In this document: positions 5,232-49,117 of the stretch, piece after piece | How the letters are laid out: each line of letters starts with the position of its first letter | Numbering within the stretch: position 1 is the stretch's first letter | Assembly: GCF_001677475.2 (NCBI RefSeq) | Contig: NZ_CP015229.1 | Reading direction: 5' to 3' (one strand) | DNA length: 64,000 nt | Source: Escherichia coli | GTDB lineage: Bacteria > Pseudomonadota > Gammaproteobacteria > Enterobacterales > Enterobacteriaceae | The notes under the pieces: generated by a model | Seen by the model: the letters and a program-made list of their open reading frames with translations, nothing else | Told to the model about the DNA's origin: nothing | Database searches by the model: none | Program-made: the position numbers and the translations under genes

Positions 5232-5365
5232 AGTTTGCTCCTGCCATAACGTGAAGAAGCAATGACCTGGTGGTCCGTGACTTCCCTACGCTGGCATTAT
5301 CCAGATCAGGTGATACGGGTATTTCTCAGCCTTCACGCAGAAGGGCACCCCGAGTCGTTTGGTTG
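5232..5365 (-). promoter_or_regulatory. TPP (thiamine pyrophosphate) riboswitch in thiM leader
   Basis: Minus-strand sequence reads ...GGGGTGCCCTTCTGCGTGAAGGCTGAGAAATACCCGTATCACCTGATCTGGATAATGCCAGCGTAGGGAA..., the classical thi-box aptamer, immediately upstream of thiM. Confidence 0.9.
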
Positions 5366-16417: not shown

Positions 16418-19400
16418 ATGAGACACTTTATCTTTCAGGACGAAAAATCACATAAATTCTGGGCGGTGGAGCAGCAGGGAAACGAGCTGCATATCAACTG
16501 GGGAAAAGTCGGCACCAACGGGCAAAGTCAGGTAAAAAGCTTTGCTGATGCTGCGGCGGCGGAAAAAGCGGAACTGAAGTTGATTGCGGAGAAGATTAAG
16601 AAGGGGTATGTGGATGATGGTTCGCCAGAAACCATCATAAACTCTCCGATATCAAGCACAGTTTCAGTACAAGAGTTAGCAATATCAACAGGAAACTTCA
16701 CAACGACTGAAACGGCACAGCCACAAGCGATGCCCACGTTGGAAACGCCGCCCTGGCTGAAGAACGGTGAGTCAATTGTTATTTTTGCCAATGCTGAACC
16801 CGCGCCGTTTAGCCATCGTCACTTGATTAATGATCCTCTGGACATTGTTGATAAAGATGGCTTCTTCTGGATACAACTAAAAGAGTACCCATATTGGGCA
16901 GCATTTTACCTTGCCTGTCTGCAAAAGTTCGATGTCAGCCAATGCCAGTCAGAATGGCAATTGGCGTTACAGGAAACTATTTCGCGCATCCAGAAATTAC
17001 AGCAAGACGGATCGTTGCTTTCCGACGTCATATTGACACTGACAAGATTAATTATCGGCCGCCCCGGTCGCCCTCATACATGGCTGGATAGCATAGTGCA
17101 ACTGCGAGGCCTTGAGTATGCCACTGAGTTAGTTATCGCTATGCAGCATGTACAAATGACTGACGACGCAAATACCGATCCTACAAAAAATGCCACTTTA
17201 AAACTTCATTACAATAGTCTTTTTAGTGCGCTGAGAAGAGGGGAAATGGCAGACAATTATTATCTACCTGTAGTAAGCCTTAGCCACGATATTTCCGACA
17301 TGCGCTACAAATATGGATTCAGCGACGAAATAGAGTTACGTTTACGAGAACACCTTTCGCACACAGATGAGGAAACCTGGCAACGCTGTGCTAATAAACT
17401 CATAGATGCTCTCCCTTCACTGCCTCCCCGCAAACGCCCATTAATTGCTTTTTTGCTACCAGAAAAACCAGATATTGCCAATCAGATAGCCCTGGAAATT
17501 GCCCCTATGCATGATTACCCAGAGATTGAGTGGCTTTCCCTTGTCACAACTGACCCGCAAGCAACGTGTCTGCTGAAGAATTTCCATCAACTTGAACTCA
17601 CAACGGGATGGGGAGGCGATATGACGAATCGTTGTATTAAAACCCTACTGCGTGAACAAGGTCTTAATGCCCTGTCACGTCTGCAAGAGGGAGTTAACGA
17701 TAGTTATCCTGTCAGACACGCACTTCAGGAAATTAACCATCCTGATGTCGTTACGTTGTTTATCAAAGAGGAATGTGCCATAGGTGTCGAAATTTCGGCT
17801 TCGAAGTACCCAGAATCGGCGCTTTATGCCCTTACTGCAGCTTTGCTTAGTGCTAAAAATCTGAGGTATTCTCGCCTGATGGAACGAATTGTATTAGGTA
17901 ATGCTCAAACCTTGCGTAATACAATGCCCTGGTTGAGTGAGGAACAGAAACAACTTTTATTCAGTTATTTTCCTCAACTTCATGCTAAAGAAGAGATAGC
18001 CAATGCTTGTGAGTTACCCGGTATATTAACTAATCCAATTTGGCTGAAGAAAAAGAATAAATCCGCCACGACGATATTTACATTACCCGTATTGCCTCTG
18101 GAGTCCATTGGCCCCAACCCTCAGCCACAACCCGAAGCAGAAATACCTTCTACTGCTGAAGTCTTACGCCACCTGGGATTCAGTAGTGGAGCATTTGAAG
18201 AGAATAATCCTGATCCAGAAAGATTCGATATTAAATGGGGCGTAACCAAAACGGCCATTCGTCTTCTGGAAACGGAAGATTATGAATCGTTGTTAAATAC
18301 CCGACCAAAGTATGATTATGAAGGTTTTATTACCTTTTATGTATCCATACTCACTCGTCTACCAGCAGAGAAAGCGCTCTCAATCTGGAATGGACTCTCA
18401 CACATGCACCTCGTGGGTGCTGAGAAAGTGGTTGAGCGATTTGGTCTATCTACGGTACCGGGTCTGTTGCGTTATGCCCTGGTAAACCCTAAGGAGGCGG
18501 TTCCCCTGGCAGCACAATTCGGTGCAACTGAAGTTGCCCTGCTGATGGCCCGCGCATTTTGCCAGTTAAAATCCGTACGAGATGTCGCCGAATATTGGCT
18601 CACCACCTACCCGGAACATGCCATTACCGGGCTGCTGCCTATTGCGCTGGGTAAACCAGTTAAAGAACAACAAGATGCCCGGATGACATTACGCTACCTG
18701 GTCAATAATGGTCATCTCGCGTTGCTGAAAAAAATTGCCAGCCGTTACCAACAACCTGAGGTAATAACTGCACTTACCGACTTTTTAGCAGCAGATCCGC
18801 TGGAAAACTATCCACAGAAAATCGCCAAACTCCCTGGGTGGTGTTCACCAGAAGTATGGCACCGCCCGCTTCTGCGCAGTAACGGCAAGGCACTTTCAGA
18901 TTCAGCCATCCTGCACCTGTGCACCATGCTCTCTTTTCCCCGCGAAGCCACCCTTTACCCAGGGATAACACAGGTAATCAAGGCCTGTACTCCGCAATCT
19001 CTTGCCGATTTCGCCTGGGATCTCTTCCTCAGTTGGGAATCTGCCAGTGGCTCCGCTAAAGATAACTGGGCATTTACCGCACTGGGGATTCTGGGCAACG
19101 ATGACACCGCCCGCAAACTCACCCCGCTCATCCGCGCCTGGCCGGGGGAATCTCAGCATAAACGCGCCACTGTCGGGCTGGATATTCTTGCTGCTATCGG
19201 CAGCGATATCGCCCTGATGCAGCTTAACGGCATCGCGCAAAAGCTAAAATTTAAAGCCTTGCAGGATCAGGCAAGAGTTAAAATCGCCCAGATTGCCGAA
19301 AGCCGCCAACTCACCGTCGCAGAAATGGAAGACCGGTTAGCGCCGGATCTCGGACTGGATGATAACGGCTCACTACTGCTGGATTTCGGCCCACGCCAGT

Positions 19401-20254
19401 TCACCGTCAGCTTTGATGAATCCTTAAAACCGTTTGTGCGCGATGCTTCCGGCAGCCGCCTGAAAGACCTGCCCAAACCGAACAAAAGCGATGATGAAAC
19501 ACTGGCTGAGGAAGCGGTAAATCGCTACAAGTTGTTGAAAAAAGATGTCCGCACGGTGGCAGCGCAACAAATTTCGCGTCTGGAAGCCGCCATGTGTCAG
19601 CGTCGCCGCTGGACAGCAGAACAGTTCCGCCTGTTTCTGGTTGAGCATCCCCTGGTACGTCATATCACCCAACGTCTGATGTGGGGCGTATACGATGCAG
19701 ATAATCAGCTTATCACCTGTTTTCGCGTGGCGGAGGATGGCAGTTTTAGCGACGGTCAGGATAACCCGTTAACCCCTGCGCAGGGTAGCATCGGTATCCC
19801 GCATGTGCTGGAAATCCCGGCCCCGCAGGCGGCTGAATTTGCTCAACTGTTTTCTGACTACGAACTCCTGCCACCGTTCCGTCAACTCGATCGCCCCTGG
19901 TCTCAGCTCTCTGATTCAGAAAAAAACAGCAACGATTTGCAGCGCTGGGCTGGTCGCCAGGCACCAAGTGGGCGCGTCGCCGGGCTGATGAATAAAGGCT
20001 GGCAACGGGGCGATGTGCTGGATGGTGGCGGCTATTACTCATTTTATAAAGCTGTGGATGATGGCTACGTCGAACTGAGTGTGACACCCGGCTTCAGTGT
20101 TGGATTACCCGTCACCGAAATCAGCGCCAGCCAAAAAATTGAGCACATTCAGTTGTGCAAACTGACGCCGCACAAATCGGTTTATCCCTTCTCCGTGCTC
20201 GACGACATCACCGCCAGCGAACTCATTAACGATATTGAATCACTGTTTGATTAA
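16418..20254 (+). CDS. molR: giant WGR-domain protein with DUF4132-like C-terminal region, paralog 1
   Basis: 1278-aa ORF; N-terminal ~65 aa with FQDEKSHKFWAVEQ...WGKVG (WGR-type) motif; first of three tandem paralogs; positional equivalent of K-12 molR (symbol assigned by position and recollection). Confidence 0.8.
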   Translation: MRHFIFQDEKSHKFWAVEQQGNELHINWGKVGTNGQSQVKSFADAAAAEKAELKLIAEKIKKGYVDDGSPETIINSPISSTVSVQELAISTGNFTTTETAQPQAMPTLETPPWLKNGESIVIFANAEPAPFSHRHLINDPLDIVDKDGFFWIQLKEYPYWAAFYLACLQKFDVSQCQSEWQLALQETISRIQKLQQDGSLLSDVILTLTRLIIGRPGRPHTWLDSIVQLRGLEYATELVIAMQHVQMTDDANTDPTKNATLKLHYNSLFSALRRGEMADNYYLPVVSLSHDISDMRYKYGFSDEIELRLREHLSHTDEETWQRCANKLIDALPSLPPRKRPLIAFLLPEKPDIANQIALEIAPMHDYPEIEWLSLVTTDPQATCLLKNFHQLELTTGWGGDMTNRCIKTLLREQGLNALSRLQEGVNDSYPVRHALQEINHPDVVTLFIKEECAIGVEISASKYPESALYALTAALLSAKNLRYSRLMERIVLGNAQTLRNTMPWLSEEQKQLLFSYFPQLHAKEEIANACELPGILTNPIWLKKKNKSATTIFTLPVLPLESIGPNPQPQPEAEIPSTAEVLRHLGFSSGAFEENNPDPERFDIKWGVTKTAIRLLETEDYESLLNTRPKYDYEGFITFYVSILTRLPAEKALSIWNGLSHMHLVGAEKVVERFGLSTVPGLLRYALVNPKEAVPLAAQFGATEVALLMARAFCQLKSVRDVAEYWLTTYPEHAITGLLPIALGKPVKEQQDARMTLRYLVNNGHLALLKKIASRYQQPEVITALTDFLAADPLENYPQKIAKLPGWCSPEVWHRPLLRSNGKALSDSAILHLCTMLSFPREATLYPGITQVIKACTPQSLADFAWDLFLSWESASGSAKDNWAFTALGILGNDDTARKLTPLIRAWPGESQHKRATVGLDILAAIGSDIALMQLNGIAQKLKFKALQDQARVKIAQIAESRQLTVAEMEDRLAPDLGLDDNGSLLLDFGPRQFTVSFDESLKPFVRDASGSRLKDLPKPNKSDDETLAEEAVNRYKLLKKDVRTVAAQQISRLEAAMCQRRRWTAEQFRLFLVEHPLVRHITQRLMWGVYDADNQLITCFRVAEDGSFSDGQDNPLTPAQGSIGIPHVLEIPAPQAAEFAQLFSDYELLPPFRQLDRPWSQLSDSEKNSNDLQRWAGRQAPSGRVAGLMNKGWQRGDVLDGGGYYSFYKAVDDGYVELSVTPGFSVGLPVTEISASQKIEHIQLCKLTPHKSVYPFSVLDDITASELINDIESLFD

Positions 20255-20266
20255 AAGGATTTAGCA

Positions 20267-23200
20267 ATGAAAACCTATATTTATCAGGACGAAAAATCAC
20301 ATAAATTCTGGGCGGTGGAGCAGCAAGACAACGAGCTGCATATTAGCTGGGGTAAAGTCGGTACTAACGGGCAAAGTCAGGTAAAAAGCTTTGCTGATGC
20401 TGCGGCGGCGGAAAAAGCGGAACTGAAGTTGATTGCGGAGAAAACAAAAAAGGGCTACGTAGAAGAAGTATCCGTGATAACACCGACATCTGTCCCCGTC
20501 CAGGTTATCGAATGCCCCGAAATAGCCCCTTTGCCACAAGACAAACCAGTATTTGTTGGAGACAACCTCCCCTGGCTGGCAGACGACGCCCAAATCATTT
20601 TACCGACAGAGGTTGCGCCAACCACACTAAGTCATCGACGCTGGCCTGGCGATCCTGTGCCACAGGAGAATGAATTAACTCTGCTACGCTCCGTCGCCGC
20701 GAATACTCACCGACGTTTTAAAAAGGTGATCACCTTCGATTACAGCACCTGTTCACTGGACTGGCAGCAGGCGATAACACAAGCAGTGGGCCTTATCGAC
20801 TCGCCGATTAGCACCACGCTACCACCGATGGTTCTGGCGGTACTGGTTGCGCTGGAACAAGGCTTCAATCGTAACGATCACGAAGAGTTAATGGATCAAA
20901 TTGTCCAGGAAGGTGGTCTGGAATATGCCACTGAGGTTGTCATTGCACTACAATTCATCCGCTTCGACTGGGATTATGATGCCCATCTTATTACGTTCAC
21001 CCCGGATGACAGGCAGCCTGGCTATCTGTTGCGCTTTGCCTCGGTTGAAATGCGCCTGCGCAAGCATTTCTCACTTGCAAATGACGATGTATGGCAGCGC
21101 TGCGCCGACAAACTGATTGCCGCTCTCGGAAACATGCCCGCCTGGCACCAGCCGCTGGTTGCACTATTGTTGCCGGAAAAACCAGAAGTAGCTCATGAGA
21201 TTGCCAGACATTTTTGCGGGCAAAAAGGGTTATATGCGCTGGAATGGCTAAAACTGACGGTCACCGATGCTCAGGTATTAGCAGACCTGGAAAAATACTA
21301 TCCAGGACAGCCTGGGCAGGTATTTGATGATTACTATGGCGGTAACATCTGGTGTGCGACAGCACTCCAGGAGCAAGGAGTCACTGCGCTGGCCCGTTTT
21401 GCCCATTACGCTACTGGTGACACATGTGGTGAAGTGTTGATGCATATCAACCACCCGCAGGCACTTACACTACTTATCCATGCAAGCGAGCAAGGAAAGC
21501 GTTGCCACGATCGCATGACAAAGGCTTTCGTTCGCTTCCCACACGCAGCGCTGGCGGCATTAGCAGAACTTCTGGCACAAAAAGATGAAAAGCGCTGGCG
21601 CATGATGCTAATGACGATGCTTATCTCGCAACCGGCACTAGCAGAACAGGTCACTCCCTGGCTCTCAACCCCCGCAGTTGCAGTGCTGAAATCATGCCAG
21701 CAACAACTGACACAGCCCTCAAACCATGCCAGCGCCGATCTACTGCCAGCCATATTAGTCTCACCGCCCTGGCTTTCGAAAAAGAAAAAATCTGTAATGC
21801 CGGTATTGGATTTAACGCCATTACCGCTGGAGTCATGCTGCACATTGACCGAGACGGCAGAAAAAGAGATTCATGCAAGGCATCGCTGGCACGCACATCA
21901 AATAGACGTCGGCCAAAAAGAGGATATTCAGAACTACCTGACACGTCTGGGTTTCAATCGCTGGAATAATGGCCAGTATATGAAAGCGTCTGATGCTGTT
22001 GTAGAACTCTGGCAGAGGGGAGATTATTCTGCGCTAATCAGCGAATTTAAAACCTTCTGGCACTCCTATCAACGGGAATGGCAGCTTTACATGTTAGCCG
22101 CCCTGCCTATCGAAAAAACAGCGCAGGCGTGGAATGTCCTCAGTAAAGAGCCACACGTCGGTGTCGAGTTTGTCATGACGCACCTGCAACTCGCTGGGTT
22201 ACAGGGTTTTATTCACTCCTTTTCACGCTATCCACAAGAAGCTCTGCCTGTAGCACAATATTTTGCGGCTATCGAATTAGCGCCACTGATCGCCCGCGCC
22301 TTCAACAAACTCAAAACCCTACGACAAGACGCCCGCACCTGGCTGCTGAAATACCCGGAACACGCCATTACCGGCCTGCTACCTTCGGCGCTCGGCAAAG
22401 CCGGTGAAGCACAGGATAACGCCCGCGCTGCCTTGCGTATGCTTACCGAAAACGGTCATCAGCCATTACTGCAAGAAATCGCCCGGCGTTATAACCAGCC
22501 GGAAGTAACAGATGCGGTGAACGCTCTGCTTGCGCTCGATCCCTTAGATAATCACCCGACAAAAATCCCCACTCTTCCGGCCTTTTATCAGCCATCGCTC
22601 TGGACGCGCCCGGTATTAAAAGCAAATGCCCAATCACTGCCAGATAGCGCCCTCCTACGCCTCGGCGAAATGCTCCGCTTCCCTCAGGAAGAGGCACTGT
22701 ATCCGGGATTATTGCAGGTGAAAGCCGCCTGTACCGCCGACTCACTGGCTGAATTTGCCTGGGATCTGTTTACCGCCTGGCAGACCGCTGGCGCACCGTC
22801 GAAAGAAAGCTGGGCGTTCACTGCGTTAGGTGTTCTCGGCAACGATGACACCGCCCGCAAACTGACGCCTTTGATTCGCGCCTGGCCTGGTGAATCCCAG
22901 CATAAACGCGCCACCGTCGGGCTGGATATTCTCGCTGCTATCGGTAGTGATATCGCCCTGATGCAGCTTAACGGGATCGCCCAGAAACTGAAATTCAAAG
23001 CATTACAGGAGCGGGCAAAAGAAAAAATTGCCGACATTGCCGAGAGTCGCGAACTGACGGTAGCGGAGCTTGAAGATCGGTTAGCACCGGATCTCGGTCT
23101 GGATGATAACGGTTCGCTGCTGCTGGATTTTGGCCCACGGCAGTTCGCCGTCAGCTTTGATGAAACCTTAAAACCGTTTGTGCGCGATGTTTCCGGCAGC

Positions 23201-24028
23201 CGCCTGAAAGACTTACCTAAACCCAATAAAAGCGATGATGAATCACAGGCGAACGATGCTGTTAACCGCTACAAATTGCTGAAAAAAGATGCGCGTACCG
23301 TCGCCGCCCAGCAGGTAGCAAGGCTGGAATCCGCCATGTGCCTGCGCCGCCGCTGGTCGCCGGAAAACTTTCAGCTCTTCCTGGTTGAGCATCCGCTGGT
23401 TCGTCACTTAACCCGCCGTCTGATTTGGGGCGTTTATAGCGCCGAAAACGAGCTACTGGCTTGCTTTCGCGTGGCGGAAGATAACAGCTACAGCACCACA
23501 GACGATGATCTTTTCACCCTGCCGGAAGGCGATATCTCTGTTGGTATTCCTCACGTTCTGGAAATATCACCCACGGATGCCGCTGCCTTTGGTCAGCTTT
23601 TTGCCGACTACGAACTGTTACCGCCGTTCCGCCAGCTTGACCGCAACAGTTACGCGCTGACAGAAGCCGAACGCAACGCCAGTGAACTGTCCCGCTGGGC
23701 CGGCAGAAAATGTCCGAGCGGTCGAGTAATGGGGCTGGCGAATAAAGGCTGGATGCGTGGTGAACCGCAGGACGGTGGCTGGATCAGCTGGATGATCAAA
23801 CCTCTGGGCCGCTGGTCGTTAATTATGGAAATCGATGAAGGTTTTGCGGTCGGCATGTCGCCAGCCGAACTGAGTGCCGAGCAACTCTTAAGCAAGGTGT
23901 GGCTATGGAAAGGCAAAGCAGAAAACTATGGCTGGAGGAGTTATTCAACACAGGAAGCGCAGTTCTCCGTACTCGATGACATCACCGCCAGCGAGCTGAT
24001 TAGCGATATTGAATCTCTGTTTGAATAA
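20267..24028 (+). CDS. giant WGR-domain / DUF4132-like protein, paralog 2
   Basis: 1253-aa ORF 12 bp after paralog 1 (AAGGA SD); N-terminal WGR region and C-terminal ~450 aa highly similar to paralog 1, central region divergent. Confidence 0.85.
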   Translation: MKTYIYQDEKSHKFWAVEQQDNELHISWGKVGTNGQSQVKSFADAAAAEKAELKLIAEKTKKGYVEEVSVITPTSVPVQVIECPEIAPLPQDKPVFVGDNLPWLADDAQIILPTEVAPTTLSHRRWPGDPVPQENELTLLRSVAANTHRRFKKVITFDYSTCSLDWQQAITQAVGLIDSPISTTLPPMVLAVLVALEQGFNRNDHEELMDQIVQEGGLEYATEVVIALQFIRFDWDYDAHLITFTPDDRQPGYLLRFASVEMRLRKHFSLANDDVWQRCADKLIAALGNMPAWHQPLVALLLPEKPEVAHEIARHFCGQKGLYALEWLKLTVTDAQVLADLEKYYPGQPGQVFDDYYGGNIWCATALQEQGVTALARFAHYATGDTCGEVLMHINHPQALTLLIHASEQGKRCHDRMTKAFVRFPHAALAALAELLAQKDEKRWRMMLMTMLISQPALAEQVTPWLSTPAVAVLKSCQQQLTQPSNHASADLLPAILVSPPWLSKKKKSVMPVLDLTPLPLESCCTLTETAEKEIHARHRWHAHQIDVGQKEDIQNYLTRLGFNRWNNGQYMKASDAVVELWQRGDYSALISEFKTFWHSYQREWQLYMLAALPIEKTAQAWNVLSKEPHVGVEFVMTHLQLAGLQGFIHSFSRYPQEALPVAQYFAAIELAPLIARAFNKLKTLRQDARTWLLKYPEHAITGLLPSALGKAGEAQDNARAALRMLTENGHQPLLQEIARRYNQPEVTDAVNALLALDPLDNHPTKIPTLPAFYQPSLWTRPVLKANAQSLPDSALLRLGEMLRFPQEEALYPGLLQVKAACTADSLAEFAWDLFTAWQTAGAPSKESWAFTALGVLGNDDTARKLTPLIRAWPGESQHKRATVGLDILAAIGSDIALMQLNGIAQKLKFKALQERAKEKIADIAESRELTVAELEDRLAPDLGLDDNGSLLLDFGPRQFAVSFDETLKPFVRDVSGSRLKDLPKPNKSDDESQANDAVNRYKLLKKDARTVAAQQVARLESAMCLRRRWSPENFQLFLVEHPLVRHLTRRLIWGVYSAENELLACFRVAEDNSYSTTDDDLFTLPEGDISVGIPHVLEISPTDAAAFGQLFADYELLPPFRQLDRNSYALTEAERNASELSRWAGRKCPSGRVMGLANKGWMRGEPQDGGWISWMIKPLGRWSLIMEIDEGFAVGMSPAELSAEQLLSKVWLWKGKAENYGWRSYSTQEAQFSVLDDITASELISDIESLFE

Positions 24029-24037
24029 GGAAATAAC

Positions 24038-27000
24038 ATGAACAAGGAATTACCGTGGCTGGCGGATAACGCACAACTGGAACTGAAATATAAAAAAGGC
24101 AAAACGCCGCTCAGCCATCGCAGTTGGCCGGGCGAACCGGTGCCTGTTATTACTGAAAGCCTCATCCAGACACTGGGTGATGAATTGCTACAAAAAGCTG
24201 AGAAGAAAAAAAACATTATCTGGCGTTATGAAAATTTTTCACTGGAGTAGCAGTCCGCCATCACGGAAGCCATCAACTTGATTGGCGAACACAAACCCTC
24301 AATTCCGGCACGGACAATGGCGGCGCTAGTCTGTATCGCGCAAAAGGACAGCCAACAGTTGCTCGACGAAATCGTCCAACAAGAGGGACTGGAATATGCG
24401 ACTGAGGTGGTGATTGCACGCCAGTTTATTACACGATGTTATGAGAGTGATCCTCTGCTAGTGACATTGCAGTATCAGAACGAGGACTATGGCTATGGTT
24501 ATCGCTCAGAAACCTATAACGAATTCGATCTGCGACTGCGTAAGCATCTCTCTCTGGCAGAGGAAAGCTGCTGGCAGCGTTGCGCCGACAAACTCATTGC
24601 CGCACTGCCAGGAATACCCAAAATTCGCCGTCCTTTTATTGCGCTGGTCCTCCCGGAAAAACCAGAAATAGCCAATGAGTTGGTAGGTCTTGAATGCCCG
24701 CGGACTCATTTTCATTCTAAGGAGTGGTTAAAAGCTGTTGCTACTGCCCCCCGGGCGGTGAGAAAACTCGAACACTACTGGAGCCAGGATATATTTAGCG
24801 ATCGCGAAGCCAGCTACATGTCGCATGAAAACCGCTTCGGGTACGCGGCCTGCGCCGCCCTTTTGCGTGAACAAGGACTGGCAGCCGTTCCGCGCCTGGC
24901 AATGTATGCCCATAGAGAGGATTGCGGAAGCCTGCTGGTACAAATTAACCATCCGCAGGTCATCCGCACCTTGCTGTTAGTTGCTGATAAAAACAAACCC
25001 AGCCTGCAACGTGTGGCTAAATACAGTAAAAATTTCCCCCACGCGACACTCGCCGCACTGGCAGAACTGCTGGCGCTAAAAGAACCACCTGCGCGTCCTG
25101 GTTATCCAATCATCGAAGACAAAAAGCTGCCTGCACAGCAAAAAGCACGTGATGAATACTGGCGTACGCTGTTACAAACGCTGATGGCATCGCAGCCACA
25201 ACTGGCAGAAGAGGTGATGCCGTGGTTAAGTACTCAAGCCCGGTCAGTGCTGAATAGTTATTTATCGGCACCGCCTAAAACGGTTATTGATAGCACCGAT
25301 AACAGCCAAATGCCTGAAATCCTCGTTTCACCACCGTGGCGTAGTAAGAAAAAAATGACAGTTCCACGTCTTGATTTGGCACCGTTCGAATTAACGCCGC
25401 AAGTTTACTGGAAACCAGGCGAACGAGAGAGGCTTGCCGCCACTGAGTCTGCCCGTTATTTCAGTACGGAATCTCTTGCGGAACGCATGGAACATAAAAG
25501 TGGACGAGTTGTACTACAGGAGCTGGGTTTTGGAGATGATGTATGGCTGTTTTTGAATTATATACTCCCCGGAAAACTGGATGCTGCACGCAATTCACTC
25601 ATTGTTCAGTGGCATTACTACCCAGGGCGGGTTGAAGAGATCATGAATGGCTGGAGCTCCCCGGAAGCTCAATTAGCAGAACAGGCGCTTCGCAGCGGTC
25701 ACGTAGAAGTGTTAATTAACATATGGGAAAATGACAGCTACTCACGCTATCGTCGGGAAAAGAGTATCTGGAACCTGTATTTATTGGCGCAGTTGCCGCG
25801 TGAGATGGCTTTGACTTTCTGGCTACGTATCAATGAGAAAAAGCATCTGTCTGCGGGTGAGGACTATTTTCTCAGTATCTTCGGATTGGATGCTCTACTA
25901 GGTCTGCTGTTGGCTTTTTCACATCGTCCAAAAGAAACATTTCCGTTAATTTTAAATTTCGGCGCAACCGAACTAGCCCTGCCCGTTGCCCGCGTCTGGC
26001 GACGTTTCGCGGCGCAGCGTGATCTGGCCCGCCAGTGGATTTTACAATGGCCGGAACATACGGCTACTGCACTTATCCCTCTTGTCTTCACCAAATCCAG
26101 CGATAATAGCGAAGCTGCATTACTTGCCCTGCGTTTACTTTACGAACAGGGACATGGCGAGTTACTGCAAACCGTGGCAAACCGCTGGCAGCGTACAGAT
26201 GTATGGCCTGCCCTGGAGCAATTACTTAAACAGAGTCCAATAGAGATTTACCCGACACGCATTCCAAAAGCCCCTGATTTCTGGCAGCCGGCAATGTGGT
26301 CCAGGCCGCGCCTTATCACGAATAATCAACCTGTTACTGATGACGCTCTGGAAATTATCGGCGAAATGCTGCGCTTTACCCAGGGCGGACGTTTTTATAG
26401 CGGACTGGAACAGCTGAAAACGTTTTGCCAGCCGCAAACGCTGGCAGCCTTTGCCTGGGATCTTTTCACCGCGTGGCAACAAGCTGGTGCTCCCGCAAAA
26501 GACAACTGGGCATTTCTGGCGTTAAGTCTCTTTGGCGACGAAAGCACGGCACGGGATCTGACGACACAGATCCTTGCCTGGCCACAGGAAGGCAAATCTG
26601 CCCGTGCTGTCAGTGGTCTGAATATACTTACTCAGATGAATAATGATATGGCACTGATACAGTTGCATCATATATCGCAACGGGCGAAATCCCGCCCCTT
26701 ACGTGATAACGCGGCGGAATTTCTTCAGGTGGTCGCAGAAAATCGCGGGCTAAGCCAGGAACAGTTAGCGGACAGATTAGTCCCAACACTGGGTCTTGAT
26801 GATCCGCAGGCGTTGATTTTTGATTTTGGTCCACGGCAATTTACCGTTCGCTTCGATGAAAACCTTAACCCGGTTATCTTTGATCAGCAAAACGTTCGCC
26901 AGAAAAGCGTTCCCCGGTTGCGCGCCGATGACGATCAACTGAAAGCACCCGAGGCACTGGCCCGACTAAAAGGGCTAAAAAAAGATGCCACTCAGGTGAG

Positions 27001-27670
27001 CAAAAACCTGCTCCCGCGTCTTGAAACTGCCCTGCGCACCACCCGACGCTGGTCGCTGGCAGATTTTCATTCTCTGTTTGTTAATCATCCCTTTACCCGC
27101 CTGGTTACTCGGCGATTGATATGGGGTGTTTATCCGGCAAATGAACCGCGTCGTTTACTCAACGCCTTTCGTGTGGCCGCTGAGGGGGAGTTCTGCAATG
27201 CGCAAGATGAGCCAATTGACCTGCCTGCCGATGCTCTGATTGGCATTGCCCACCCGTTAGAAATGGCAGCAGAAATGCGCAGTGAATTTGCACAGCTTTT
27301 TGCCGATTACGAAATTATGCCGCCTTTTCGCCAGTTGGCACGGCGCACAGTGCTGCTCACGCCTGACGAGTCAGCCAGTAATAGTTTGAATCGCTGGGAA
27401 GGTAAATCTGCTACCGTTGGGCAACTTATGGGAATGCGATACAAAGGCTGGGAGTCAGGCTATGAGAACGCATTTGTCTATGACCTGGGCGAGTACCGGC
27501 TGGTCCTTAAGTTTTCATCCGGTTTTAACCACTACAATGTTGATAGCAAAGCGCTAATGAGCTTCCGTTCTCTTCATGTATACCGTGAGAATAAATCTGT
27601 CACTTTTGCCGAACTTGATGTGTTTGATTTGAGTGAAGCGTTAAGCGCACCCGACGTTATTTTCCATTAA
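24038..27670 (+). pseudogene. yehI: third paralog (YehI-like, lacks WGR N-terminus) interrupted by in-frame amber codon
   Basis: ORFs 24038-24250 and 24278-27670 are in the same frame, separated only by TAG at 24248-24250, which aligns with a Trp codon in paralog 2; read-through length would be 1210 aa. Confidence 0.75.
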
Positions 27671-28432: not shown

Positions 28433-28515
28433 GTTGGAACACGATGTTGCACAGGCTGCGGTGTTGGGCCTGAAAATAGTAAATAAAAGAACCTGCCTCA
28501 CCAGCAGGTTTTTTT
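28433..28515 (+). ncRNA. orzO: small RNA, candidate type I antitoxin (OrzO-like)
   Basis: Consensus promoter directly upstream; 5' end UUGGAACACGAUGUUGCAC is complementary (18 of 19) to toxin leader site at 28267-28285; ends at strong terminator CCTGC-N7-GCAGG plus T7 (28492-28515). Confidence 0.55.
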
Positions 28516-28626
28516 ATTTACTGTGATCTGCTTTCCAGATATTTTTCGCTCAAACAACTAATGCGCAAAACATTTATTGCGCGTAAAATATCGTTTATTT
28601 CATTAATACATTTCAGGGATGAATAT

Positions 28627-29715
28627 ATGTCACCGCAGAATAATCATCTGCAGCGTCCGCCTGCCGCTGTGTTATACGCCGATGAACTGGCAAAATTAAA
28701 ACAAAATGATAACGCACCTTGCCCGCCAGGTTGGCAGTTAAGTTTGCCTGCGGCCCGCGCTTTTATCCTTGGCGACGAAGCGCAAAATATTAGCCGTAAA
28801 GTCGTGATCAGTCCCTCCGCTGTCGAACGCATGTTAGTCACTCTCGCTACCGGGCGCGGTTTGATGTTGGTGGGGGAACCTGGCACCGCAAAATCTCTCC
28901 TGTCTGAATTACTGGCGACCGCTATTAGCGGCGATGCCGGGTTAACCATCCAGGGCGGCGCATCTACCACCGAAGATCAAATCAAGTACGGCTGGAACTA
29001 CGCCCTGCTTATCAACCATGGTCCGTCAACGGAAGCGCTGGTCCCTGCCCCGCTTTACCAGGGAATGCGCGACGGCAAAATTGTCCGTTTTGAAGAGATA
29101 ACGCGTACACCGCTGGAAGTACAAGACTGTCTGTTAGGTATGCTTTCTGACAGGGTAATGACGGTGCCGGAACTCACTGGTGAAGCCAGTCAGCTCTATG
29201 CGCGGGAAGGCTTTAATATTATTGCCACTGCCAATACCCGCGATCGCGGCGTCAATGAAATGAGTGCTGCGCTAAAGCGTCGCTTCGATTTTGAAACTGT
29301 CTTTCCGATTATGGATTTCGCCCAGGAGCTGGAACTGGTCGCCAGTGCTTCCGCGCGTTTGCTGGCCCATAGCGGTATTCCGCATAAAGTGCCTGACGCG
29401 GTACTGGAATTACTGGTGCGCACGTTCCGCGATCTGCGTGCCAACGGCGAAAAGAAAACGTCAATGGATACACTGACAGCGATTATGTCCACCGCTGAAG
29501 CCGTTAACGTGGCCCATGCTGTGGGTGTCCGCGCCTGGTTTTTAGCGAATCGCGCGGGGGAGCCTGCCGACCTGGTGGATTGTATTGCCGGAACCATCGT
29601 CAAAGATAACGAAGAAGATCGCGCGCGTCTGCGCCGTTACTTCGAACAGCGCGTCGCCACACATAAAGAAGCTCACTGGCAGGCTTATTATCAAGCTCGC
29701 CACCGCCTGCCGTGA
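28627..29715 (+). CDS. yehL: MoxR-like AAA+ ATPase (AAA_5 type)
   Basis: 362-aa product from ATG 28627; Walker A LVGEPGTAKS, Walker B-like VRFEEIT; ORF N-terminal extension from 28561 rejected. Confidence 0.85.
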   Translation: MSPQNNHLQRPPAAVLYADELAKLKQNDNAPCPPGWQLSLPAARAFILGDEAQNISRKVVISPSAVERMLVTLATGRGLMLVGEPGTAKSLLSELLATAISGDAGLTIQGGASTTEDQIKYGWNYALLINHGPSTEALVPAPLYQGMRDGKIVRFEEITRTPLEVQDCLLGMLSDRVMTVPELTGEASQLYAREGFNIIATANTRDRGVNEMSAALKRRFDFETVFPIMDFAQELELVASASARLLAHSGIPHKVPDAVLELLVRTFRDLRANGEKKTSMDTLTAIMSTAEAVNVAHAVGVRAWFLANRAGEPADLVDCIAGTIVKDNEEDRARLRRYFEQRVATHKEAHWQAYYQARHRLP

Positions 29716-29725
29716 GGAAAGATGC

Positions 29726-32005
29726 ATGAGCGAGCCGTTAATTGTCGGCATCCGGCATCATAGTCCGGCCTGCGCCCGGCTGGTGAAATCGTTAATCGAA
29801 AGCCAGCGGCCACGATACGTGTTGATTGAAGGCCCGGCTGATTTTAATGACCGGGTAGACGAACTGTTGTTAGCCCACCAGCTTCCGGTAGCTATTTACA
29901 GTTATTGCCAGTATCAGGACGGTGCGGCCCCCGGGTGTGGTGCCTGGACGCCATTTGCTGAATTTTCGCCAGAGTGGCAGGCGCTACAAGCCGCACGTCG
30001 TATTCAGGCACAAACTTACTTCATCGATTTGCCTTGCTGGGCACAGAGTGAAGAAGAGGACGATTCGCCTGATACGCAAGAGGAAAGCCAGACCTTGCTG
30101 CTGCGTGCCACCCGCATGGATAACAGCGATACCCTGTGGGATCACTTGTTCGAAGATGAAAGCCAGCAAACTGCATTACCCTCTGCGCTGGTGCACTATT
30201 TTGCCCAACTGCGGGGCGACTCCCCCGGAGATGCTCTCAATCGTCAGCGTGAAGCCTTTATGGCCCGCTGGATTTCATGGGCGATGCAGCAAAATAATGG
30301 CGACGTGTTAGTTGTCTGCGGAGGCTGGCACGCTCCGGCACTGGCAAAAATGTGGCGCGAATGCCCGCAGGAAATTAACACGCCAGAATTGCCCTCGCTG
30401 GCAGATGCCGTTACAGGTTGTTATCTCACACCCTACAGTGAAAAGCGCCTTGATGTGCTGGCAGGATACCTTTCAGGAATGCCTGCCCCGGTCTGGCAAA
30501 ACTGGTGCTGGCGGTGGGGCTTGCAGCAGGCAGGTGAACAACTGCTGAAAACGGTTCTTACCCATTTGCGCCAGCACCACTTGCCTGCTTCAACAGCGGA
30601 TATGGCTGCCGCTCATCTACATGCGATGGCACTGGCACAGTTGCGTGGTCATACACTACCGTTACGCACTGACTGGCTGGATGCCATAGCAGGCTCGCTG
30701 ATTAAAGAAGCCCTGAATGCGCCGTTGCCGTGGAGCTATCGCGGCGTTATTCATCCCGATACCGATCCGATTCTGCTAACGTTGATAGACACATTAGCGG
30801 GTGACGGATTCGGTAAACTTGCCCCTTCTACGCCACAACCGCCTCTGCCAAAAGATGTCACCTGCGAACTGGAACGTACAGGAATCTCTTTTCCGGCGGA
30901 GCTTACCTTAAATCGCTTTACCCCCGATGGACTGGCGCAAAGTCAGGTGTTACATCGGCTGGCAATACTGGAGATCCCAGGGATTGTGCGCCAGCAGGGA
31001 AGTACACTGACACTTGCAGGCAACGGTGAAGAACACTGGAAATTAACCCGCCCGCTTAGCCAGCATGCGGCATTGATTGAGGCCGCATGCTTTGGTGCCA
31101 CACTCCAGGAAGCCGCACGCCATAAATTAGAAGCCGATATGCTGGACGCGGGTGGAATCGGCAGTATCACCACATGTCTTAGCCAGGCGGCGTTAGCGGG
31201 TCTGGCGTCCTTCAGTCAACAATTACTGGAGCAACTCACATTATTAATCGCCCAGGAAAATCAATTTGCCGAAATGGGCCAGGCGCTGGAAGTGCTATAT
31301 GCCTTATGGCGGCTGGATGAAATTAGCGGTATGCAAGGCGCGCAGATATTACAAACGACGTTATGCGCGGCTATCGATCGCACGCTGTGGCTGTGTGAAT
31401 CTAACGGCAGACCAGATGAAAAGGAGTTTCACGCTCACCTGCATAGCTGGCAGGCGCTTTGCCATATCCTGCGCGATCTACATAGCGGCGTTAATTTACC
31501 CGGCGTTTCTCTTTCTGCGGCGGTAGCCTTACTGGAGCGCCGCAGTCAGGCGATTCATGCCCCGGCGCTGGATCGCGGCGCGGCTCTTGGCGCACTGATG
31601 CGTCTGGAACATCCCAACGCCAGTGCCGAAGCGGCGCTGACGATGCTGGCGCAGTTATCCCCGACACAGTCCGGCGAGGCGCTGCACGGTTTGCTGGCAT
31701 TAGCCCGTCATCAACTGGCCTGTCAGCCGGCATTTATCGCCGGTTTCAGTAGTCATTTAAATCAACGGAGTGACGACGATTTTATTAACGCCCTGCCCGA
31801 TTTACGCGCGGCGATGGCCTGGCTACCACCACGAGAACGCGGGACGCTGGCGCATCAGGTGCTTGAGCATTACCAGCTCGCACAGCTTCCCGTTTCAGCG
31901 CTGCAAATGCCGTTGCATTGTCCACCGCAAGCCATTGCACATCATCAACAACTCGAACAGCAGGCACTGGCATCGCTGCAACACTGGGGAGTTTTCCATG
32001 TCTGA
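29726..32005 (+). CDS. yehM: large protein of unknown function
   Basis: 759-aa product from ATG 29726 (GAGGAAAG SD; 10 bp after yehL stop); no recognisable catalytic motif. Confidence 0.8.
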   Translation: MSEPLIVGIRHHSPACARLVKSLIESQRPRYVLIEGPADFNDRVDELLLAHQLPVAIYSYCQYQDGAAPGCGAWTPFAEFSPEWQALQAARRIQAQTYFIDLPCWAQSEEEDDSPDTQEESQTLLLRATRMDNSDTLWDHLFEDESQQTALPSALVHYFAQLRGDSPGDALNRQREAFMARWISWAMQQNNGDVLVVCGGWHAPALAKMWRECPQEINTPELPSLADAVTGCYLTPYSEKRLDVLAGYLSGMPAPVWQNWCWRWGLQQAGEQLLKTVLTHLRQHHLPASTADMAAAHLHAMALAQLRGHTLPLRTDWLDAIAGSLIKEALNAPLPWSYRGVIHPDTDPILLTLIDTLAGDGFGKLAPSTPQPPLPKDVTCELERTGISFPAELTLNRFTPDGLAQSQVLHRLAILEIPGIVRQQGSTLTLAGNGEEHWKLTRPLSQHAALIEAACFGATLQEAARHKLEADMLDAGGIGSITTCLSQAALAGLASFSQQLLEQLTLLIAQENQFAEMGQALEVLYALWRLDEISGMQGAQILQTTLCAAIDRTLWLCESNGRPDEKEFHAHLHSWQALCHILRDLHSGVNLPGVSLSAAVALLERRSQAIHAPALDRGAALGALMRLEHPNASAEAALTMLAQLSPTQSGEALHGLLALARHQLACQPAFIAGFSSHLNQRSDDDFINALPDLRAAMAWLPPRERGTLAHQVLEHYQLAQLPVSALQMPLHCPPQAIAHHQQLEQQALASLQHWGVFHV

Positions 32006-33134
32006 ACTGAACGATCTTCTGACCACCCGTGAGCTACAACGCTGGCGATTAATTCTTGGAGAAGCGGCAGAAACGACGCTTTGTGGGCTGGATGACAACG
32101 CCCGGCAGATAGACCACGCGCTGGAGTGGCTGTATGGGCGCGATCCTGAACGGCTCCAGCGTGGTGAACGTTCCGGTGGATTAGGTAGCTCAAATCTCAC
32201 CACCCCTGAGTGGATCAACAGTATTCACACGCTGTTTCCGCAACAGGTGATTGAGCGGCTGGAAAGCGATGCCGTACTGCGCTACGGCATTGAAGATGTG
32301 GTGACGAATCTCGACGTGCTGGAACGTATGCAGCCTTCTGAAAGCCTGCTACGCGCCGTTTTGCACACCAAACATCTGATGAATCCCGAAGTACTGGCTG
32401 CCGCCCGCCGGATAGTGCGCCAGGTTGTTGAAGAAATTATGGCTCGACTGGCAAAGGAAGTTCGTCAGGCTTTTTCTGGTGTCCGCGATCGCCGTCGCCG
32501 CTCATTTATTCCACTGGCGCGAAACTTTGATTTCAAAAGTACTCTGCGCGCCAACCTGCAACACTGGCACCCGCAACACGGCAAGTTGTATATCGAATCC
32601 CCCCGCTTTAACAGCCGCATTAAACGCCAAAGCGAACAATGGCAACTGGTCTTACTGGTTGATCAAAGCGGCTCGATGGTTGACTCGGTGATCCACTCAG
32701 CGGTGATGGCGGCCTGTTTGTGGCAGTTACCCGGCATTCGTACCCATCTGGTGGCGTTTGACACAAGCGTCGTTGATCTCACGGCAGACGTTGCCGATCC
32801 GGTAGAACTATTAATGAAAGTACAACTGGGCGGCGGAACCAATATCGCCAGTGCCGTGGAGTATGGTCGGCAACTTATTGAACAACCAGCAAAAAGCGTC
32901 ATTATCCTCGTGAGCGATTTTTATGAAGGAGGTTCATCATCATTGCTGACGCATCAGGTGAAAAAATGTGTCCAGAGCGGCATCAAAGTGCTGGGACTGG
33001 CGGCGCTCGATAGCACCGCAACACCTTGCTATGACCGCGATATGGCCCAGGCACTGGTTAATGTCGGTGCACAAATAGCCGCCATGACGCCGGGCGAACT
33101 GGCATCATGGCTGGCGGAGAATCTTCAGTCATGA
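31998..33134 (+). CDS. yehP: von Willebrand factor A (VWA) domain protein with MIDAS motif
   Basis: 378-aa product; start ATG overlaps yehM stop (ATGTCTGA); MIDAS-like LVLLVDQSGSM. Confidence 0.85.
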   Translation: MSELNDLLTTRELQRWRLILGEAAETTLCGLDDNARQIDHALEWLYGRDPERLQRGERSGGLGSSNLTTPEWINSIHTLFPQQVIERLESDAVLRYGIEDVVTNLDVLERMQPSESLLRAVLHTKHLMNPEVLAAARRIVRQVVEEIMARLAKEVRQAFSGVRDRRRRSFIPLARNFDFKSTLRANLQHWHPQHGKLYIESPRFNSRIKRQSEQWQLVLLVDQSGSMVDSVIHSAVMAACLWQLPGIRTHLVAFDTSVVDLTADVADPVELLMKVQLGGGTNIASAVEYGRQLIEQPAKSVIILVSDFYEGGSSSLLTHQVKKCVQSGIKVLGLAALDSTATPCYDRDMAQALVNVGAQIAAMTPGELASWLAENLQS

Positions 33135-35131
33135 ATTCACTACGTCCGGAATTATTAGAACTGACACCGCAGGCGCTGACGGCGTTAAGCAATGCCGGTT
33201 TTGTGAAGCGCAGTCTTAAGGAACTGGAAAATGGCAACGTCCCGGAAATCAGCCATGAGAACGGTGTTTTACTCGCCACGTTCAGTGACGGTGTCCGTAC
33301 CCAACTGGCGAACGGTCAGGCACTGAAAGAGGCTCAGTGCAACTGCGGGGCCAGCGGCATGTGCCGTCATCGCGTGATGCTGGTGTTAAGTTATCAACGA
33401 CTTTGCGCTACCGCCCAGCCCACGGAAAAAGAAGAAGAGTGGGATCCAGCAATCTGGCTGGGAGAGCTGGCAACCCTACCCGATGTCACCCGTAAACGTG
33501 CACAAGCTCTTGTCGCTAAAGGCATCACCATTGAGTTGTTCTGTGCGCCGGGCGAAATTCCCTCTGCCCGCTTACCGATGAGTGATGTGCGTTTTTATTC
33601 CCGCAGCAGCATTCGTTTCGCACGCTGTGATTGTATTGAAGGCACGCTGTGTGAACATGTAGCACTGGCTGTGCAGGCCTTCGTCGAGGCCAAAACTCAG
33701 CAAGCGGAATTTAACCATTTGATCTGGCAGATGCGCAGCGAACACGCCGCATCATCTGACGATCCATTTGCCAGCGAAGAAGGCAAAACGTGTCGTCAAT
33801 ATGTTCAGCAATTAAGTCAGGCATTATGGCTGGGCGGCATCAGCCAGCCGCTTATTCATTACGAGGCTGCTTTCAGCCGCGCGCAGCAAGCGGCGGAACG
33901 CTGCAACTGGCGCTGGGTAAGTGAATCACTACGACAGCTACGGGCAAGCGTTGATGCCTTCCACGCCCGCGCCAGCCACTACCATGCCGGAGAATGCTTA
34001 CGTCAGCTTGCGGCATTAAACAGTCGATTAAATTGCGCACAAGAGATGGCCCGGCGCGACAGTGTTGGTGAAGTTCCTCCCATGCCGTGGCGCACGGTCG
34101 TTGGCGCTGGCATTGCCGGAGAAGCAAAGCTTGATCATCTGCGGCTGGTGTCTTTAGGTATGCGTTGCTGGCAGGATATTGAGCAGTATGGTTTACGCAT
34201 CTGGTTTACCGATCCCGACACCGGCAGTATTTTGCATCTTTCGCGTAGTTGGCCGAGAAGCGAACAGGAAAACTCACCGGCAACGACGCGTCGGCTGTTT
34301 AGTTTTCAGGCTGGCGCACTGGCTGGTGGGCAAATTGTTTCACAAGCAGCAAAACGCAGTGCCGATGGCGAGCTGCTGTTAGCTACCCGCAACCGCTTAA
34401 GCAGCGTTGTGCCGCTGTCGCCAGACGCCTGGCAAATGTTGAGCGCGCCATTGCGCCAGCCGGGCATTGTGGCTTTGCGGGAATATTTACGCCAGCGTCC
34501 CCCCGCCTGCATACGGCCTCTTAATCAGGTGGATAACTTATTTATTCTGCCAGTCGCTGAGTGTATTTCACTCGGTTGGGATAGCAGCCGCCAGACGCTG
34601 GATGCGCAGGTAATCAGCGGCGAAGGTGAAGATAATCTGCTGACGTTATCACTGCCAGCCTCAGCCAGTACGCCTTATGCCGTTGAACGTATGGCGGCGC
34701 TTTTGCAACAAACAGAGGACCCCGTGTGTCTGGTTTCTGGCTTTGTCAGTTTTGTAGAGGGGCAATTGACACTGGAACCACGGGTGATGATGACAAAAAC
34801 CCGCGCCTGGGCGCTGGACGCAGAAACTGCGCCTGTGGCACCGCTACCTTCTGCCAGCGTTTTGCCTGTGCCGTCTACCGCTCATCAGTTGCTGATGCGC
34901 TGCCAGGCGTTACTTATTCAACTGCTCCATAACGGTTGGCGCTATCAGGAACAGAGTGCTATTGGTCAGGCAGAGTTGCTGGCGAATGACCTCACCGCGG
35001 TGGGTTTTTATCGGCTGGCACATGTGTTGGCACAATTTCGTAATACAGAAAGCGAGGCATGGGTAGAAGCAATGAATAACGGTGTTTTACTTTGCGAACA
35101 ATTATTCCCCATGCTTCAGCAACAAGGATGA
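33131..35131 (+). CDS. yehQ: protein with two SWIM-type zinc-finger motifs
   Basis: Start ATG overlaps yehP stop (ATGA); two CxCx5CxH motifs (CNCGASGMCRH from 33338; CDCIEGTLCEH). Confidence 0.8.
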   Translation: MNSLRPELLELTPQALTALSNAGFVKRSLKELENGNVPEISHENGVLLATFSDGVRTQLANGQALKEAQCNCGASGMCRHRVMLVLSYQRLCATAQPTEKEEEWDPAIWLGELATLPDVTRKRAQALVAKGITIELFCAPGEIPSARLPMSDVRFYSRSSIRFARCDCIEGTLCEHVALAVQAFVEAKTQQAEFNHLIWQMRSEHAASSDDPFASEEGKTCRQYVQQLSQALWLGGISQPLIHYEAAFSRAQQAAERCNWRWVSESLRQLRASVDAFHARASHYHAGECLRQLAALNSRLNCAQEMARRDSVGEVPPMPWRTVVGAGIAGEAKLDHLRLVSLGMRCWQDIEQYGLRIWFTDPDTGSILHLSRSWPRSEQENSPATTRRLFSFQAGALAGGQIVSQAAKRSADGELLLATRNRLSSVVPLSPDAWQMLSAPLRQPGIVALREYLRQRPPACIRPLNQVDNLFILPVAECISLGWDSSRQTLDAQVISGEGEDNLLTLSLPASASTPYAVERMAALLQQTEDPVCLVSGFVSFVEGQLTLEPRVMMTKTRAWALDAETAPVAPLPSASVLPVPSTAHQLLMRCQALLIQLLHNGWRYQEQSAIGQAELLANDLTAVGFYRLAHVLAQFRNTESEAWVEAMNNGVLLCEQLFPMLQQQG

Positions 35132-48944: not shown

Positions 48945-49117
48945 GATGAGCATTCAGATAGTGGTTCACGCGCACGGGTTGCGCACCGCCGGAGTAAGGA
49001 TTTACTGAGGCTAGCGACGCCATCATAACGAGCAAAAAGTGCGATCGTCAAAGGAGAATCGTGAGGAAATGCTGCATTGCTGACATTTACGCCAGCAATG
49101 CAACACAAAAGAACTTT

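Follow-up and report, generated by a model that had tools for sequence, protein, structure and literature searches.

How do two tandem genes whose proteins are only 17-60% identical over most of their length come to encode one stretch of 58 residues identically, using DNA that differs? This question is raised by a 64,000-nucleotide stretch of Escherichia coli DNA from contig NZ_CP015229.1 of assembly GCF_001677475.2, in the following termed the window. It carries two large tandem open reading frames (ORFs), both intact, which encode the paralogs A (16418-20254, plus strand, 1278 amino acids) and B (20267-24028, plus strand, 1253 amino acids). A first-pass annotation of the window had ascribed the identical stretch to selection against every replacement. 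As described below, our analysis suggests a different history, in which an old gene conversion from B to A, followed by purifying selection, is the probable origin of the identity.

Both A and B contain a WGR domain (PF05406) and a DUF4132 domain (PF13569), each matched with strong E-values. For the Pfam search the protein was scanned as two halves; in A, WGR covers residues 5-68 (E = 4.6e-18) and DUF4132 residues 1012-1195 (E = 1.4e-48), and the whole protein is a member of the family. In its C-terminal part, B corresponds to the molR type that is common in Escherichia. Homologous E. coli genes are labeled "WGR and DUF4132 domain-containing protein" and "YehI" in RefSeq.

Identity and silent divergence of the 58-codon block

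Translation and comparison of the two genes placed the block at 19091-19264 in A (plus strand, residues 892-949) and at 22835-23008 in B (plus strand). The position reported by the first-pass annotation was exact for B but one base too low for A, where 19090-19263 translates out of frame. Both copies encode the same 58 residues, and 22 of the 174 nucleotides (12.6%) differ, distributed over 21 codons. Twenty of these codons show a single third-position change and one leucine codon (CTC/TTG) shows two changes, all of them synonymous. This recount of 22 differences, none of which is nonsynonymous, confirmed the previous claim of an identical protein with a purely synonymous DNA divergence of about 13%. 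As approximately three-quarters of random nucleotide changes would alter the protein, 21 silently changed codons without any replacement have a chance probability of the order of 1e-13. The absence of replacements was also unusual in relation to the closest neighborhood. In the 135-codon tract described below there are 10 replacements, all in the later part past the block, and a run of 57 codons without replacement is unusual even there (scan P = 0.035).

Mosaic silent divergence between A and B

The alignment of A and B has a mosaic structure. Protein identity amounts to about 90% in the WGR-containing N-terminus (first ~58 residues) and to 13-45% in the center; it then reaches 86-91% from about residue 880 to residue 1040 and falls towards the C-terminus. 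In a sliding-window Nei-Gojobori analysis, the proportion of synonymous differences (pS) was 0.20 in the WGR end. The center is saturated, with values of 0.7-1.0 that extend to the codons immediately preceding the block, and pS is 0.40-0.58 between the start of the block and a point about 130 codons downstream.

As a measure that is independent of the replacement load, we considered only residues identical in A and B and compared the fraction encoded by the same codon with the fraction expected at saturation from the genes' own codon usage. In the center, 0.36 was observed and 0.35 expected (z = 0.1). The corresponding values were 0.62 and 0.37 in the block (z = 4.1), 0.62 and 0.39 in the next ~130 codons (z = 5.1), and 0.80 (44 of 55 codons) and 0.43 in the WGR end (z = 5.8). 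The silent sites of the block are only about half-saturated, while those of the center and the immediate flanks are saturated. The first-pass annotation had contrasted the block with a background in which the proteins accumulate replacements. The contrast in protein identity is real, but block and background differ in age. A duplication of uniform age combined with a fast-evolving center was also considered and rejected, because the same-codon fraction of the center corresponds to saturation, in contrast to a roughly estimated ~0.56 for a uniform synonymous divergence (dS) of ~0.8.

Limits of the low-dS tract

The unsaturated dS is confined to a tract of 405 bp located at 19094-19498 in A (plus strand, residues 893-1027), which aligns without gaps to 22838-23242 in B (plus strand). 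Its first codon is the second codon of the block, which makes up the 5′ 43% of the tract. Between A and B, dS is 0.65 in the tract compared to 1.8-3.0 or saturation in the flanks. A maximum chi-square scan found same codons at 83 of 123 positions in the tract and at 172 of 412 positions outside (chi2 25.1), a value reached by at most one of 200 permutations, and the silent differences are clustered (runs test for alignment columns 906-1100, P = 1e-4). The 5′ edge is sharp: in the sequence WAFTALG just upstream, the codons differ at all six multi-codon positions, and from 19094 onward A and B share a run of 26 identical nucleotides. The 3′ edge is diffuse and extends from 19498 to about 19570. 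Together with the tract tree presented in the next section, these features suggest that the segment in A is an old conversion tract of B (P2) type and that its counterpart in B represents the donor lineage.

Conflicting phylogenies of tract and flanks

The homologous arrays of E. coli MB53 and 98219 were included in the comparison. Further sequences came from a scan in which each species was represented by one genome, namely those of Escherichia sp. MOD1-EC7003, E. whittamii, and Escherichia sp. E1V33 as well as three Klebsiella species, Erwinia, Edaphovirga, and Serratia. Two old paralog clades, P1 and P2, are present in both Escherichia and Klebsiella. P1 includes E. whittamii p1, E1V33 p1, and Klebsiella p1, and P2 includes the B-type genes of Escherichia (among them the K-12-type molR) and Klebsiella p2.

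Neighbor-joining (NJ) trees with 200 bootstraps grouped the A-type genes with P1 on both sides of the tract, with 84-87% support for residues 700-892 and 97-100% for residues 1051-1278. In the tract (residues 893-1027), the topology switches: A and the Escherichia B clade form a group without Klebsiella p2 or P1 (100% for nucleotides, 75% for amino acids), and a grouping of A with P1 was obtained in 0% of the nucleotide and <5% of the amino acid replicates. Quartets based on parsimony-informative sites, with E. whittamii p1 as P1 reference, gave the same result. The flanks favored (B,Klebsiella p2|A,P1) with 37:12:12 and 44:14:10 sites, whereas the tract favored (A,B|Klebsiella p2,P1) with 16:5:4 sites (Fisher P = 1e-5 to 3e-5). 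With Erwinia as outgroup, (A,P2|P1,outgroup) was favored even by the block alone (10:2:4, compared to 34:39:64 for the flanks; P = 0.016), and for the whole tract the P value was 7e-4. The incongruence is also visible at the protein level, as A carries P2-type residues in the tract, including the sequence MQLNG.

Further paralogs and orthologs served as controls. Between A and B, the tract dS of 0.65 is accompanied by no replacement in the block. The orthologs B and Klebsiella oxytoca p2 show a tract dS of 1.72 and three block replacements, the unconverted pair E. whittamii p1/p2 a tract dS of 2.7 and seven block replacements, and the unconverted pair K. oxytoca p1/p2 a saturated tract dS and nine block replacements. 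In Klebsiella p1/p2, no same-codon excess was found in the block region, but an excess was present in the WGR end and in the last ~250 codons. This argues that the block is not subject to an intrinsic silent-site constraint and that the lineages converted different segments. The same analysis of tandem arrays from Massilia was uninformative, since the excess was noisy and generally positive. In the first-pass annotation, the divergence of the block DNA had been taken as an argument against conversion. This argument does not hold, because the silent sites of the block are unsaturated, the trees of tract and flanks conflict, and unconverted pairs carry 7-9 replacements.

Selective constraint on the block

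The ratio of nonsynonymous to synonymous divergence (dN/dS) of the block is ~0.01. A comparison of this ratio with that of the flanks had been proposed earlier; the low value in the block was obtained, but pS is saturated in the flanks, so these differ in age from the block. Since the presumed exchange, 21 codons of the block have changed silently and none has changed the protein. Between B and its Klebsiella p2 orthologs, replacements occurred at 3 of 58 positions in the block compared to 15 of 77 in the rest of the tract. In 24 homologs that originate from Beta-, Gamma-, and Deltaproteobacteria and Actinobacteria, the mean identity to A over the block is 73%. Of the 522 windows in the C-terminal 579 residues, only two are more conserved than the block, and the best one is offset from it by a single residue. 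L901, W908, R916, A917, G920, L924, D930, and K944 (A numbering) are invariant in an alignment of 30 sequences. An exception to this family-wide conservation is YehI, with only 45% identity in the block region. Two further statements of the first-pass annotation are in line with these data: the block is strongly constrained, as indicated by dN/dS and by its rank among distant homologs, and both copies are under selection rather than decaying, given two intact ORFs and exclusively silent changes in the block.

A WGR patch and hypervariable centers

The 5′ WGR-coding patch of A (16418-16591, plus strand), which corresponds to 20267-20440 in B and shows the pS of 0.20 mentioned above, suggests that conversion also took place here, more recently than in the tract and apparently repeatedly. 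The quartet signal of the WGR end depends on the reference: (A,B) was supported by 15:2:1 sites with Klebsiella p1 and by 5:6:0 sites with E. whittamii p1. The two copies of E. coli MB53 share 99% identity in their first 40 codons.

The center of A (window positions 16700-18400) and its counterpart in E. coli MB53 share 99.7% identity, and the flanking housekeeping genes of the window differ by about 2% from E. coli. The near-identity to MB53, compared to a divergence of 4-9% in the 3′ third of A, and the rarity of A-type centers, which were found in 4 of 5426 complete E. coli genomes, suggest a recent horizontal exchange of this segment. The center of B/molR (20560-22250) is polymorphic in E. 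coli and occurs in discrete allele classes. In 666 complete E. coli genomes the B-type center is present at full length, and most of the others match at 60-90% or partially. The Escherichia centers are thus hypervariable and cassette-like.

Predicted structure of the block region

The block had been assigned to the DUF4132-like region, but it actually lies outside of the Pfam domain, 63 residues upstream of the match at residues 1012-1195. In an AlphaFold model of A residues 700-1278 with a predicted local distance difference test (pLDDT) score of 87.6, the block is helical and contains three predicted helices (H196-212, H215-228, and H231-243 in model numbering). When mapped onto this model, the block corresponds to three helices of a helical repeat, for which the best fold matches were HEAT-like or designed repeat proteins, with a sequence identity of 7-15% and Foldseek E-values all above 0.03. 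The block is predicted to represent three helices of a HEAT-like repeat.

Searches with Pfam, NCBIfam, PDB sequences, and the fold did not assign the block region to any enzyme family. The PDB sequence search yielded only noise (E ≥ 0.09), and the sole NCBIfam match was an unrelated "fibronectin-binding" equivalog in the WGR region, far below the cutoff. The previous proposal of an interaction surface or catalytic core can be narrowed down accordingly: the catalytic part is unsupported, as none of these methods revealed enzyme similarity, and, judging from the model, a scaffold or interaction surface is plausible.

Neighboring genes and distribution of the gene array

The window represents the apbC-metG-molR-yehI-yehKLMPQ region of Escherichia. 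Its metG and apbC genes have a top identity of 97.7-97.9% to those of complete E. coli genomes, and for the molR region most complete E. coli genomes show a 90-95% match. A third paralog, named yehI in RefSeq (24038-27670, plus strand), lacks a WGR domain. Its codon 71 (24248-24250) is an in-frame amber codon, TAG instead of the TGG present in E. coli 98219, and yehI in this window is probably a pseudogene, while A and B are intact. Many E. coli strains show the opposite state with a broken molR and an intact yehI; in K-12, molR is a pseudogene.

Downstream, Pfam and RefSeq annotation identified yehL-yehM-yehP-yehQ (28561-35131, plus strand). YehL is a MoxR-like AAA_5 ATPase (E = 3e-34) with a weak bpMoxR match, YehM is a DUF5682 protein, YehP contains a VWA_CoxE domain (E = 5e-72), and YehQ has a weak SWIM match. 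In the scan of species genomes, one or several WGR-DUF4132 genes were immediately followed by yehLMPQ homologs in most of the loci that extended far enough downstream. This adjacency spans Gamma-, Beta-, and Deltaproteobacteria and includes two actinobacterial loci. Because several paralogs share one YehLMPQ set, the block is a candidate docking surface. It may contact the shared YehLMPQ partners or the DUF4132 domain, and the center may give specificity. Some Betaproteobacteria (Massilia spp., Duganella) contain WGR-DUF4132 tandem arrays of four to at least six copies, and for some of these arrays no yehL-Q homologs are present in the 10-kb flanks that were covered. The expansion of arrays is a trait of the family and not a peculiarity of Escherichia. 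None of the defense-system models of PADLOC-DB v2 matched A, B, YehI, YehK, YehL, YehM, YehP, or YehQ, and literature searches on DUF4132, DUF5682, molR, yehI, and yehLMPQ found no functional study.

Three RNA elements were detected in the window with Rfam. Between yehK and yehL (28440-28515, plus strand), there is an OrzO-P antitoxin small RNA (101 bits, gathering score 60); in E. coli O157:H7, the zor-orz type I toxin-antitoxin locus is situated between yehI and yehL (PMC2887945). A thiamine pyrophosphate (TPP) riboswitch (5266-5362, minus strand) and a Peptidase-S11 RNA motif (48949-49029, minus strand), both gathering-level matches, are unrelated to the block.

Discussion

The data are probably best explained by an old B-to-A gene conversion between tandem paralogs and subsequent purifying selection. 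According to this explanation, A and B would derive from a duplication that is older than the split of Escherichia and Klebsiella, and most of their length would have become saturated at silent sites. The conversion would have followed that split but preceded the diversification of the sampled alleles of both types. In this event, ~400 bp from a B-type copy would have overwritten the A-type copy at 19094-19498 and reset protein and DNA to identity; we infer the direction to be from B to A. Afterwards, the silent sites would have diverged again (dS ~0.65-0.8), and selection would have removed every replacement in the first 58 codons and most replacements in the remaining codons of the tract. 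The block would correspond to three helices at the start of the best-conserved module in a protein composed of WGR, helical repeats, and DUF4132 (molR/yehH type). It could serve as a HEAT-like surface kept by all paralogs, which would work with a single shared set of YehL (AAA+), YehM, YehP (VWA), and YehQ, and the hypervariable center would provide specificity.

The alternative favored in the first-pass annotation is an ancient duplication of uniform age without conversion, in which the identity of the block results purely from selection against every replacement. All differences are indeed synonymous, the block is effectively the most conserved window across the family, and the A-type and B-type block DNAs form separate groups across strains, which indicates that no recent homogenization took place. 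This alternative is nevertheless largely refuted, and we consider it very unlikely to be correct. It conflicts with the silent sites of the block, which are far from saturation although the center and the adjacent flank are saturated, and with the opposing signals of tract and flanks in trees and quartets. Moreover, paralog pairs of the same age elsewhere have accumulated 7-9 replacements in the block, and the tract dS of A and B is lower than that of the orthologs B and Klebsiella p2, which under a rough clock is impossible for an older split. A different way to account for the low dS would be a constraint on the silent sites of the block, which would then only look young. Such a constraint could be imposed by an mRNA structure, an overlapping antisense gene, or codon preference at critical residues. 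The clustering of the silent differences, the somewhat low block dS of B and K. oxytoca p2 (0.85), and the mechanical antisense ORFs overlapping both blocks are in agreement with this idea. However, the p1/p2 pairs of Klebsiella and E. whittamii reach the saturation level in the very same block (same-codon fraction 0.40-0.45), and an incongruence that extends to the protein, with P2-type residues in A, does not fit either. We therefore regard the idea as extremely unlikely. Intrinsic silent-site constraint was rejected on the basis of these paralog controls. An overlapping antisense gene was likewise rejected: two antisense frames contain stops in both copies and the third contains a stop in A, and the mechanical antisense ORFs differ in extent between the copies.

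A reverse scenario, which we rate as unlikely, assumes that A arose by duplication of B and afterwards received imported or P1-type sequence in place of its center and flanks, so that the block region and the WGR end would be remnants of the original B-like copy. Several properties of the genes are compatible with such a chimera. They are strongly mosaic, with an A center that is 99-100% identical between the window and MB53 next to a C-terminal third diverged by 4-9%; A-type centers are rare; in the K-12-type molR, the C-terminus is of B-type and the center belongs to a third type; and the array size varies between two and four copies in Escherichia and reaches at least six in Massilia. On the other hand, at least two replacement events would be required, one on each side of the tract, and a single patch of 400 bp is simpler. 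Even for a chimera, the identity of the block is due to shared recent ancestry plus constraint, and the main conclusion is unchanged.

Some of our results weigh against conversion or against the role proposed for the block. The block alone contains few informative sites, and the bootstrap values for (A,B) versus (B,Klebsiella p2) are only 21-38%, so that the timing rests on the whole tract. The dS of B and K. oxytoca p2 is 0.85 in the block, with 64% same codons, compared to ~1.8 in the flanks, which could be due to chance (z ~2.4), inter-genus exchange, or a mild local silent-site constraint. In the flanks, raw distances place A about equidistant from all clades; A is grouped with P1 there by rate-corrected NJ and by parsimony quartets, on which this grouping depends, and it could be influenced by long-branch effects. 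NJ and parsimony were the only methods used for the phylogeny. With respect to the helical surface, no Pfam HEAT, HEAT_2, or HEAT_PBS profile matched A residues 600-1278 even at E ≤ 10, and the docking function of the block is conjectural.

In a wider interpretation, which we consider unlikely, the conserved WGR 5′ end and the HEAT-like/DUF4132 3′ module could act as recombination anchors around a hypervariable specificity center. Tandem arrays would then shuffle center cassettes, and the WGR-DUF4132 proteins would be a diversifying sensor family of an AAA+/VWA/SWIM system, possibly in conflict or defense. If so, the block would be conserved both as a docking surface and as a homology patch where exchanges resolve. 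In any case, residues 892-949 represent the best-conserved surface of a widespread uncharacterized family and are a first target for mutation, and the mosaic, cassette-like molR/yehI array with its linkage to yehLMPQ could guide work on this five-gene system.

The adjacent genes for a MoxR-like AAA+ ATPase and a VWA protein resemble MoxR-VWA partner systems such as RavA-ViaA and the vWA-MoxR "ternary" conflict systems (Kaur et al., 2020, PMC7159879), in which helical-repeat proteins are common partners. WGR, SWIM, YehL, YehM, and DUF4132 are not mentioned in that study, and a conflict or defense role of yehLMPQ and the WGR-DUF4132 proteins is only an analogy. Within the molR (yehH)/yehI, DUF4132, and WGR families, A and B carry both domains, with the block outside of the DUF4132 model, and YehI lacks WGR. 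The weak fold matches of the block region include HEAT-like/PBS-lyase-type repeats, represented by deoxyhypusine hydroxylase (4d4z), bilin lyase (7mc4), and Integrator IntS4 (7sn8), and designed alphaRep and DHR proteins.

With regard to its evolution, the block can be compared to duplicated bacterial genes subject to segmental gene conversion (concerted evolution), for which tufA/tufB in Salmonella and E. coli are the classic case. As in tufA/tufB, recombination between paralogs in one genome would have reset a stretch of sequence, which shows a locally low silent divergence and a tract tree in conflict with the flanks. The tuf genes, however, are homogenized repeatedly and along most of their length. 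The exchange considered here would be old, as judged from the dS of ~0.65-0.8 acquired since, would be short, with ~400 bp of a 3.8-kb gene, and would have occurred between saturated hypervariable sequences. Because it is embedded in such sequence, the A/B tract resembles pure purifying selection at first sight. It is thus a cautionary case: an identical protein encoded by diverged DNA leaves conversion possible, and flanks of different age can exaggerate the apparent constraint. The pattern itself, an old segmental conversion combined with constraint, is a known kind of event and ordinary population genetics, here in an unstudied family.

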